From Acidobacteriota bacterium (GTDB lineage Bacteria; Acidobacteriota; Vicinamibacteria; Vicinamibacterales; UBA2999), in the NCBI GenBank assembly GCA_013140775.1, contig JABFSA010000003.1, positions 12,704 to 76,703 on the forward strand: DNA of 64,000 nucleotides, in the 5' to 3' direction. The notes below the pieces were generated by a model, which worked only from the letters and a program-made list of their open reading frames with translations, was not told the origin of the DNA and did not search any database. Position 1 is the first letter of the stretch. Each line of letters starts with the position of its first letter. Positions 35,914 through 37,256 of the stretch are shown piece by piece. The translations under genes were made by a program, and so were the position numbers.

Positions 35914-37256
35914 AGACAGAATGACTTCCGCGACAGGCTGACCCCCGGTTGTCTCGCGGGTTAGCCTGTTGGCCAGAGCCGCATCGCTGCAGGTCCGCAG
36001 CGCAGTGTTCCCGGAGGTCAGCCATGGCGAAGTCTACACCGCTGTACGTCGGGTTGGATGTGCACAAGGAATCGATTGCCGTCGCGCATGCGACGGGTGG
36101 GCGAGCGGATCCACCCGTGTTCGTCGGCGCGATCGGGACACGCCAAGCCGACCTCGATCGGCTGATTCGACGCTTGCAGGGGAAGGCCCCCGAGCTGCGA
36201 TTCGTGTACGAAGCCGGCCCGTGTGGCTACACGCTGTATCGCTATCTCACGAAGAAGGGGCTGGCGTGTGACGTCGTGGCGCCGTCCCTGATCCCGCGGC
36301 GGCCGGGTGACAAGGTGAAGACCGACCGGCGTGATGCCGTCGAGCTCGCGCGGCTGCGGCGGTCCGGGGACCTCACCGCGGTCTACGTGCCGTCGGTGGA
36401 GGATGAAGCGATCCGCGATCTCTGCCGAGCTCGTGATACGGCGCGAGTCACGCTCAAAGATGCGAAGCTCCGGCTCAAGGCATTCCTGCTGCGTCTCGGG
36501 CTCCACTACGTGGGACGGGCCGATTGGAATGCGGCGCACCAGCGCTACCTGGCGAAGGTCGTCTGTCCCACGCCGGCGCAGCAGGTCGTCTTCCAAGAAG
36601 GCGTACGCGCCGTCGATGAGCAGGTCGAGCGGCTGCAGCGGATCGAAGCCGAGCTGCGGGACCTCGCGCCCCACTGGCGGCGCTATCCGCTCGTCGAGGC
36701 GTTACAAGCGCTGCGTGGCGTCCAGTGGGTCGTCGCCCTGACCGTGGTCGCCGAACTCGGCGACCTGACGCGCTTCGAGCATCCCCGACAGCTCGCGGCG
36801 TTCGTGGGCCTCGTGCCCTCGGAGTACTCCAGTGGCTCGACGCGTCGGCAGGGCGGCATCACCAAAGCCGGCAACGGCCGCGCGCGCCGCGTGCTGGTCG
36901 AAGCCGCGGGGGCGTATCGTCATCCCGCGAAGGTGTCACTGCATATTCAACAGCGGATCGATCAGCTCCCGAAGGCCCTGCAAGACCTCGGCTGGAAAGC
37001 GCAGGTGCGGTTGTGCAAGCGCTTTCGGCGGCTGGTCGCGCGGGGCAAGCATCCGAACGTCGTCGTCACGGCGATCGCGCGTGAGCTGATCGCCTTCATG
37101 TGGGCCATCGCGCGCGCGATGCCCACGCGCGCGTAAACCTCGCCAGGGGCGGAGGCGGGACGTGGACCACCGATACAGGCGTCATTCCTCGGCGTCCCGC
37201 TCAGTCGCCTGCGCGGCAGGGAGAACTGCGTCCCACTTGACTCGAGAAGTCATATC
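35914..37256 (+). mobile_element. IS110-family insertion sequence inserted in the attC1 R' core
   Basis: Sub-terminal 8-bp inverted repeats ATGACTTC (35921-35928, 7 nt from the left end) and GAAGTCAT (37246-37253, 3 nt from the right end). Deleting the element restores CCGTCTAAC. Boundary is ambiguous by one A. Confidence 0.82.
36024..37136 (+). CDS. IS110-family transposase/recombinase
   Basis: [17 protein letters not shown] and KTDRRDA (DEDD RuvC-like); [10 protein letters not shown] (catalytic Ser loop); [15 protein letters not shown]. Confidence 0.95.

Follow-up and report, generated by a model that had tools for sequence, protein, structure and literature searches.

The IS110 family comprises RNA-guided insertion sequences (ISs), whose guides have been described as bridge RNAs or seekRNAs. 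In IS621, the bridge RNA is found ahead of the gene, in the left end, and has two internal loops, one reading the target and one carrying the termini, each reading both strands around a shared core (PMC11208160, PMC13626964). The recombinase-RNA complex serves in the excision of IS621 as well (PMC13626964). Bridge RNAs of the IS1111 group are predicted in the right end, in 93% of elements (PMC11208160). The members of this group that insert into integron attC sites, the IS1111-attC group (ISKpn4, ISPst6, ISPa21 and ISPa25), carry an 82-86-nt seekRNA after the transposase gene, and in IS1111-type seekRNAs the top-strand match is placed 5' of the bottom-strand match (PMC11187229). When the non-coding RNA region of ISEc11 or ISEc21 is removed, circle formation is abolished, and the RNA acts in trans (PMC11187229). 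The junction promoter of ISEc11, Pjunc, has its -35 hexamer in the right end and its -10 hexamer in the left (Prosseda 2006, as cited in PMC11187229), and natural copies of ISPpu9 occur with and without a downstream small-RNA module, Ssr9 (PMC12288879). Here we examine a 1343-bp element of this family that interrupts an integron attC site at positions 35914-37256 of a 64,000-nt stretch of Acidobacteriota DNA (lineage UBA2999; contig JABFSA010000003.1 of assembly GCA_013140775.1, positions 12,704 to 76,703), hereafter called the window. Coordinates are those of the window, on the + strand unless stated.

An earlier reading of this DNA, made from the sequence alone, recognized an IS110-family element in an attC site, noted a promoter formed at the junction of its two ends and structured non-coding regions on either side of the gene, and proposed that one of these ends encodes the guide RNA. 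We compared the element with its relatives in other bacteria, derived the structure of their guide RNA, matched the loops of that RNA to insertion flanks, and followed the locus through metagenome assemblies. The guide was found in the 3' region of the relatives, and its interior is deleted in the window. We consider it very probable that this copy has lost its guide RNA and that neither of its ends encodes one.

Results

Relatives were collected by a protein-guided scan, one genome per species, which gave 80 loci with transposases 49-91% identical. Their hosts are Acidobacteriota, Rokubacteria, Nitrospirota, Desulfobacterota, Burkholderiales and marine Gammaproteobacteria. The left ends of the relatives, of about 110 nt, align with that of the window over the full 110 nt, and their right ends measure 280-356 nt. 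The 3' non-coding region is 356 nt long in the relative L002, whose transposase is 91% identical, versus 120 nt here. Within the 3' regions of the relatives lies a conserved core that is absent from the window.

An alignment (A4) of 32 of these cores yielded an RNA fold of about 180 nt, written out as 35 pairs, in which a closing stem, P1, is joined to two arms of the same design; in each arm a stem leads through a large internal loop to a capped inner stem. Pairing was found in 85.3% of the cells, and 23 of the 35 pairs had changed on both sides; none of 500 shuffles reached the observed values, and slid partners paired in 33-47%. A covariance model built from this RNA with Infernal (R1) recovered it in 79 of the 80 loci, always directly 3' of the transposase gene and at 34-171 bits, the sole negative being a contig that ends inside the transposase gene. 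The model also matched ISSso6 at 131 bits, directly after its transposase gene, when the element alone was scanned from an ISSso6-bearing Escherichia coli plasmid. Identification of the ISSso6-like plasmid matches as ISEc11 was considered and rejected, the ISEc11 protein in the published supplement being unrelated in sequence. The supplements of PMC11187229 did not contain an ISSso6 RNA sequence, and no Rfam family for this RNA emerged when the window region and three relatives of full length were scanned.

The loops of the relatives' RNA covary with the flanks of the insertions, which identifies it as the guide. Insertion flanks were available for up to 62 loci, and the statistics were computed over 57 non-redundant ones. 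The 5' loop of the first arm, 10 nt long, is the reverse complement of the target from -2 to +8 bases around the insertion point. By this rule (a slash marks the insertion point), CAAACAGGAG corresponds to the target ca/aacaggag in L023, TAAGTCCTTT to ta/agtccttg in L011, ATAGGTTTCA to tt/aggtttca in L065 and CTATCAGG... to ct/atcagg in L071. Against right-flank positions 2-8, the 5' loop matched at 5.35 of 7 positions on average, whereas shuffled pairings gave 2.63 +/- 0.19 and reached at most 3.37 in 2000 shuffles. The 29 loci with targets that are not of the AACG type gave the same picture, with 5.45 matches versus 2.43 when shuffled. The 3' loop of the first arm reproduces 2-5 left-flank bases and then AGA, the opening three bases of the element, and it matched the left flank at 2.17 of 4 positions versus 1.42 +/- 0.12 in shuffled pairings. 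The second arm carries ATATCAG, in which the right terminus is followed by the two bases that open the left end; its variant ATACCAG occurred only with right ends ending in ATACC (4 of 11, versus 0 of 50). The check that the sequence-only reading had proposed, covariation of loops with target flanks across homologs, thus succeeded, but for an RNA that this copy no longer has. As a separate observation, L034 and L037 stand in one Nitrospirota genome, have the same guide (reverse complement ATAGGGTCAA) and both occupy the site tt/agggtca, which shows guide-directed insertion within a single genome.

Pairwise alignment of the window with L002 shows what became of this RNA. The window keeps its first ~36 nt, including the 5' strand of P1, GCGGGACG (37155-62), then a short remnant, and then the 3' strand, CGTCCCGC (37193-37200). 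Neither arm is left, and another stretch, ahead of the conserved right end, is missing too; the exact endpoints are ambiguous within a few bases. An internal deletion has therefore removed both guide arms, and the closing-stem strands at 37155-37200 are all that remains, so that the structured guide encoded by 79 of the 80 relatives is lacking here. The gene is intact, and so are the two termini and the two promoter halves. The deletion also accounts for the unusual proportions of the element, 110 nt on the left and 120 nt on the right, in place of the short left end and long, RNA-bearing right end of the IS1111 group. With filters off, the best R1 score in the 3' region of the window was 4.7 bits, and neither Infernal nor nhmmer found a guide RNA match in the whole 4.86-Mb genome (nhmmer E about 6).

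Two weak R1 matches in the window were examined and set aside. One, of 6 bits at 47396-47522, was attributed to chance (E 1.7). The other, of 10.9 bits, falls on the left-end hairpin and was rejected as a guide, for it aligns the closing stem only and skips 139 model positions. Its score arises from a CC-CCGGU motif that follows the 5' strand in both the left-end hairpin (35923-35974) and the RNA closing stem; the likeness may be due to chance or to a shared protein-binding feature.

These results bear on whether the copy encodes a working, non-canonical short guide, either in its 110-nt left end or in the remaining 120 nt on the right. Such a guide might be suspected from the stable stems in both ends, the intact gene and termini, and a 6-mer, CGCGAC, complementary to the right flank. 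The 6-mer is present at 35929, as had been noted, but a 6-mer match arises in 72% of left ends once they are shuffled, and the short target matches as a whole are at chance level. The 10-nt guide expected for this site, CGACCGTTAG, has no counterpart within 2 mismatches on either strand of the element. Of the two stem-internal-loop-stem structures described in the 3' end, the stem at 37155-37200 does appear in the minimum-energy fold, but 37202-37228 forms a 4-bp hairpin only, and the 120-nt end folds no better than its shuffles (z -1.31). Since P1 alone is retained, the first of these structures is the collapsed closing stem of the deleted guide. The left end is colinear with those of relatives that carry their guide on the 3' side, it has no target-matching loops, and its conserved arm covaries with the ribosome-binding site, which that arm sequesters in a helix, rather than with targets; we therefore conclude that it does not encode a guide. 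A short guide in either end is accordingly highly improbable, and the proposal that one of the ends of this copy encodes its guide is not borne out.

The deletion recurs in Logan contigs of four metagenome runs (X1, X2, X4 and X6) from two studies (2020 and 2025); X1 and X2 derive from drinking water. Contigs in all four runs span the short 3' region with zero differences. The depth of the short form in X2 was 15.8, close to that of its left flank (15.4) and of the body of the element (14.4). The deletion is thus real and is supported by independent assemblies. Full-length relatives occur in three of the four runs with the short form. The runs hold many of them: in X2 the depth of the conserved ends is up to ~15-fold higher, several different flanks abut both ends, and full-length 3' regions are abundant, one X2 contig reaching 81x.

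Several observations weigh against a copy without its guide. An 85-nt contig in X1 (depth 5.4 versus 5.66) and a 122-nt contig in X2 (depth 7.1 versus 15.8) share at least 30 exact bases before the deletion and then continue as the full-length form, reading ...GGCGTAACCCTCGACGACGTTAAGAGG. These branch contigs, together with an assembly in 183 contigs that is 94% complete, could mean that the short 3' region arose as an artefact of assembly or binning, or represents only one of two alleles, and that the organism carries a full-length element at this locus or elsewhere. We regard this as decidedly unlikely, in view of the error-free spanning contigs from four runs and two studies, a depth in X2 that equals both flanks, and a binned genome with neither an RNA match nor a second transposase gene. 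The branch contigs may belong to other hosts, as full-length relatives stand at ~81x in X2 and this organism at 15x. The incompleteness of the genome has a further consequence, namely that a source of guide RNA in trans could be missing from the assembly. The reading frame of the transposase is still intact, so that either the deletion is recent or the gene has been retained for some reason. The 3' small RNA of ISPpu9 is dispensable for transposition (PMC12288879). The 5' loop of the second arm (consensus A.C.CAGTAA or AAGTCA) found no assignable partner on either strand of the element's ends, and same-sense matches to AGACA or CAGTA were partial. Finally, two RNA runs (5-6% shared words) held only fragments of the transposase genes of relatives, 88-95% alike, and no transcript of this organism. 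With these points taken into account, deletion of the guide remains the reading that we prefer.

The element itself is assigned, by its protein domains and ends, to the ISSso6-like, IS1111-type members of the IS110 family, as the sequence-only reading had it in family and type. Its transposase (recombinase) gene, at 36024-37136, encodes 370 amino acids free of stops and frameshifts. The N-terminal RuvC-like DEDD domain (DEDD_Tnp_IS110, PF01548, E 5e-14) and C-terminal Tnp domain (Transposase_20, PF02371, E 9e-22) of the family were found by Pfam scan, and the NCBIfam model for IS110 family RNA-guided transposases, NF033542, matched at 250 bits (cut-off 140). The closest named transposase is that of ISSso6, 54% identical over 364 amino acids. 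The left end (35914-35928) consists of the terminus AGACAGA and a sub-terminal inverted repeat, ATGACTTC, at 35921-35928. The complement of this repeat, GAAGTCAT (37246-37253), makes up the right end (37246-37256) together with the terminus ATC. Repeats of 8 bp here, and of 8-12 bp in the relatives, agree with the 7-17 bp and short terminal extensions of the IS1111 group. Conservation of both ends in the relatives supports the boundaries at 35914 and 37256: the left-end pattern AG.CA..ATG is invariant across 50 loci, and 62 right ends read CATAYC followed by an invariant A. Further support comes from an IS-free contig that abuts 37257. The genome holds a single copy, with one DNA match and one tblastn match, and this is its only IS110-family transposase gene.

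The insertion split an attC site, as the earlier reading had held. When the flanks are joined, they give an 81-nt attC on the minus (cassette) strand, GCCTAAC...GTTAGAC, with the typical imperfect hairpin. The element entered at GTT/AGAC of the R' core without target duplication. On the left, GTCT (35910-35913, minus strand) is what remains of the site, being the AGAC of the core on the cassette strand; the larger right part (37257-37333, minus strand) runs from the GTT of R' to R'', GCCTAAC, which reads GTTAGGC on the + strand at 37327-37333. Joining restores GTTAGAC with at most one ambiguous A. A contig found in runs X2 and X3 joins 37257 directly to unrelated, non-IS DNA ending in ...GGCGTCT, with the core uninterrupted, which fixes the right boundary and shows that zero target bases were duplicated. 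In the same contigs, what follows this attC, located after the DUF4926 cassette, is another sequence, ...CCCATGCTCATGGCGTCT/AACGG, which indicates another cassette order in a related strain.

An integron integrase, matched by TIGR02249 at 353.7 bits, lies nearby at 38165-39001 (minus strand). The match covers only positions 66-314 of the 315 in the profile, and ~65 N-terminal residues are missing from the reading frame. Cassette-like genes, DUF6883/DUF4926 and a methyltransferase, lie on the same strand; the DUF6883/DUF4926 pair (37340-37911, minus strand) fills the cassette whose attC the element interrupts. An integrase that is incomplete at its N-terminus and, in the first attC downstream, an element without its guide give the locus a frozen look.

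Insertion into attC in one orientation is shared by this copy and by L002, L003, L005, L007 and L048, for which the site, where more flank could be read, is an attC-like palindrome to the right, AAC...GTTRRRY. About half of the sampled relatives stand at ...T/AACG... sites. Some 800 bp upstream of the L005 element is a second, different member of the family (L005:1-229), which has TTGACA, CAGCCATATC/AACGACCGG and the RNA's 3' portion; one array thus holds two related elements in adjacent attC-like sites.

Joining the right end to the left, as in an excised circle, brings together a -35 hexamer, TTGACT (37237-37242), and a -10 hexamer, CAGAAT (35917-35922), across a 17-nt spacer made of the 14-nt cgagaagtcatatc and aga. 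This promoter, also described in the earlier reading, forms only in the circle: the joined sequence scored 9 of 12 with A2 and T6 present and passed the promoter scan, and the linear sequence from 35700 to 37450 gave zero sites. TTGAC stands at a constant distance from the right terminus in 70 of the 80 relatives' loci, and CANNAT occupies left-end positions 4-9 (CATAAT, CAGTAT or CACAAT in the place of CAGAAT), at 17 or 18 nt from TTGAC. Judged by this conservation, the promoter is, as a sequence, real, under selection and more than a product of chance. Its layout is that of ISEc11 Pjunc as reported in PMC11187229, with -35 in the right end and -10 in the left, united only in the circle; it differs in that activity is here predicted from sequence and conservation in the family. 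Both halves are present in the window, and the contigs of the runs showed zero circle junctions and no excised form joined to the methyltransferase cassette.

The structure in the left end belongs to the 5' untranslated region (UTR) of the transposase gene. The 12-bp hairpin that had been noted at 35933-35969 is there, and the relatives keep it, largely by means of G-U wobble. The sequence of its 3' arm, GGGTTAGCC, is conserved; 77.6% of the cells were paired, and the changes were mostly one-sided, A or G opposite U, with little two-sided covariation. Its other arm contains an anti-Shine-Dalgarno sequence, GGCTGACCCCCGG (35936-35948), which can pair instead, in a 13-bp long-range helix, with CCGGAGGTCAGCC (36011-36023), from the Shine-Dalgarno GGAGG to the base before the ATG. 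The two structures compete for this common arm, and the long-range helix is the better supported. It forms in the minimum-energy fold of the window, where the local hairpin does not (-50.7 kcal/mol, z -2.75), and over 32 relatives it was paired in 85.5%, and 10 of its 13 pairs had changed on both sides; none of 500 shuffles reached the observed values, and slid partners paired in at most 49%. On balance, we favor a model in which the two alternative folds of this 5' UTR would set the level of transposase translation. Between the hairpin and a variable stem-loop, all left ends carry a motif, GCCAGAGCCGC (35972-35982), in which CAGAGCC is nearly invariant.

Discussion

The full-length relatives suggest how an element of this kind would operate. 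Excision as a circle would join the right end (TTGACN) to the left end (CANNAT) and create a sigma-70-type promoter, which would transcribe the transposase gene and then the ~180-nt RNA with its closing stem and two arms; the RNA would presumably be processed from this long transcript. By analogy with ISEc11, ISEc21 and IS621, in which circle formation or excision involves the RNA, a copy that lacks its guide can most likely neither excise nor retarget unaided. It would be expected to move only with a matching RNA provided in trans, of which the genome has none. Given such an RNA, with first-arm loops CGACCGTTAG and ..GTCTAGA.., circles with the junction ...GAAGTCATATC/AGACAGAATG... would be predicted, as would insertion at GTT/AGAC.

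This last step raises the alternative that the copy is non-autonomous yet mobile, making transposase and borrowing guide RNA in trans from incoming full-length relatives. Its ends, promoter halves and gene are intact, trans-acting guide RNA is known for ISEc11 and ISEc21 (PMC11187229), and full-length relatives with attC-type guides are abundant in the same samples. The genome itself, by contrast, holds no relative, the insertion is unchanged between the samples of 2020 and 2025, and the contigs contain neither a circle junction nor an excised site joined to the methyltransferase cassette. We therefore consider borrowed mobility unlikely. The copy is a guide-less, probably immobile member of an already known kind of element, in a decayed state, and it can probably no longer leave the attC that it splits.

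Of the described elements, ISSso6 is the nearest. It has the same RNA family in the same place and the same right-end architecture, TTGACA...GAAAGTCATATC/A. The target of ISSso6, in contrast, is /agcgtt..., not attC, and ISSso6 keeps its RNA, whereas this copy does not. The IS1111-attC group shares with the present element a DEDD transposase, sub-terminal inverted repeats and insertion into attC, and the relatives show the same order of matches in their RNA. Close kinship to ISPst6 and ISKpn4 is nevertheless lacking: members of that group are 74-90% identical to one another, whereas the transposase studied here is 26% identical to that of ISKpn4 over 198 amino acids, and ISSso6 is ~22% identical to the group in the published matrix (PMC11187229). 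At ~22-26% identity, the ISSso6-like clade stands as a lineage apart, and its attC targeting is a separate acquisition, made through a guide of its own.

The RNA of the relatives resembles the IS621 bridge RNA in having one target-reading and one termini-carrying internal loop, with both strands read around a shared core, and the AGA of its target loop, taken from the left end of the element, recalls the handshake guides of IS621 (PMC11208160, PMC13626964). It differs in lying after the gene, where that of IS621 lies before it in the left end, and in the closing stem that joins its two arms. Its position agrees with the right-end placement predicted for bridge RNAs of the IS1111 group (PMC11208160). 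ISPpu9 offers a parallel of another sort, as an IS110-family element that also occurs without a downstream small RNA. The Ssr9 module of ISPpu9 is separable and has its own ends, unlike the present loss, which is internal to an RNA whose loops covary with targets; for the ISPpu9 small RNA, PMC12288879 reports no covariation with targets.

The analysis corrects an attractive reading of this locus, in that its structured ends are the stump of a deleted guide and a fold that probably controls translation, not a new guide RNA. It also describes, in a form that can be used, the guide RNA of the ISSso6-like clade, which lacks an Rfam family, together with the rule by which its 10-nt loop reads the target. 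To the study of integrons it adds a case in which the attC core is interrupted 1-2 bases away from the point of integrase crossover, next to an integrase without its N-terminus, and it places an origin of attC targeting in a lineage that shares only ~22-26% identity with the classical IS1111-attC group. On this view the ISSso6-like elements make up a second attC-targeting lineage, independent of the IS1111-attC group and spread over several phyla. A broader idea, which we hold to be quite improbable as it stands, is that guide-less copies such as this one are orphan RNA-guided recombinases, whose ends are intact and whose junction promoter is latent, re-armed and retargeted by bridge or seekRNAs supplied in trans by related elements in transit through the community. 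If it were true, guide and enzyme would circulate as separable parts, and a stranded copy could leave its site or move between integron attC sites.

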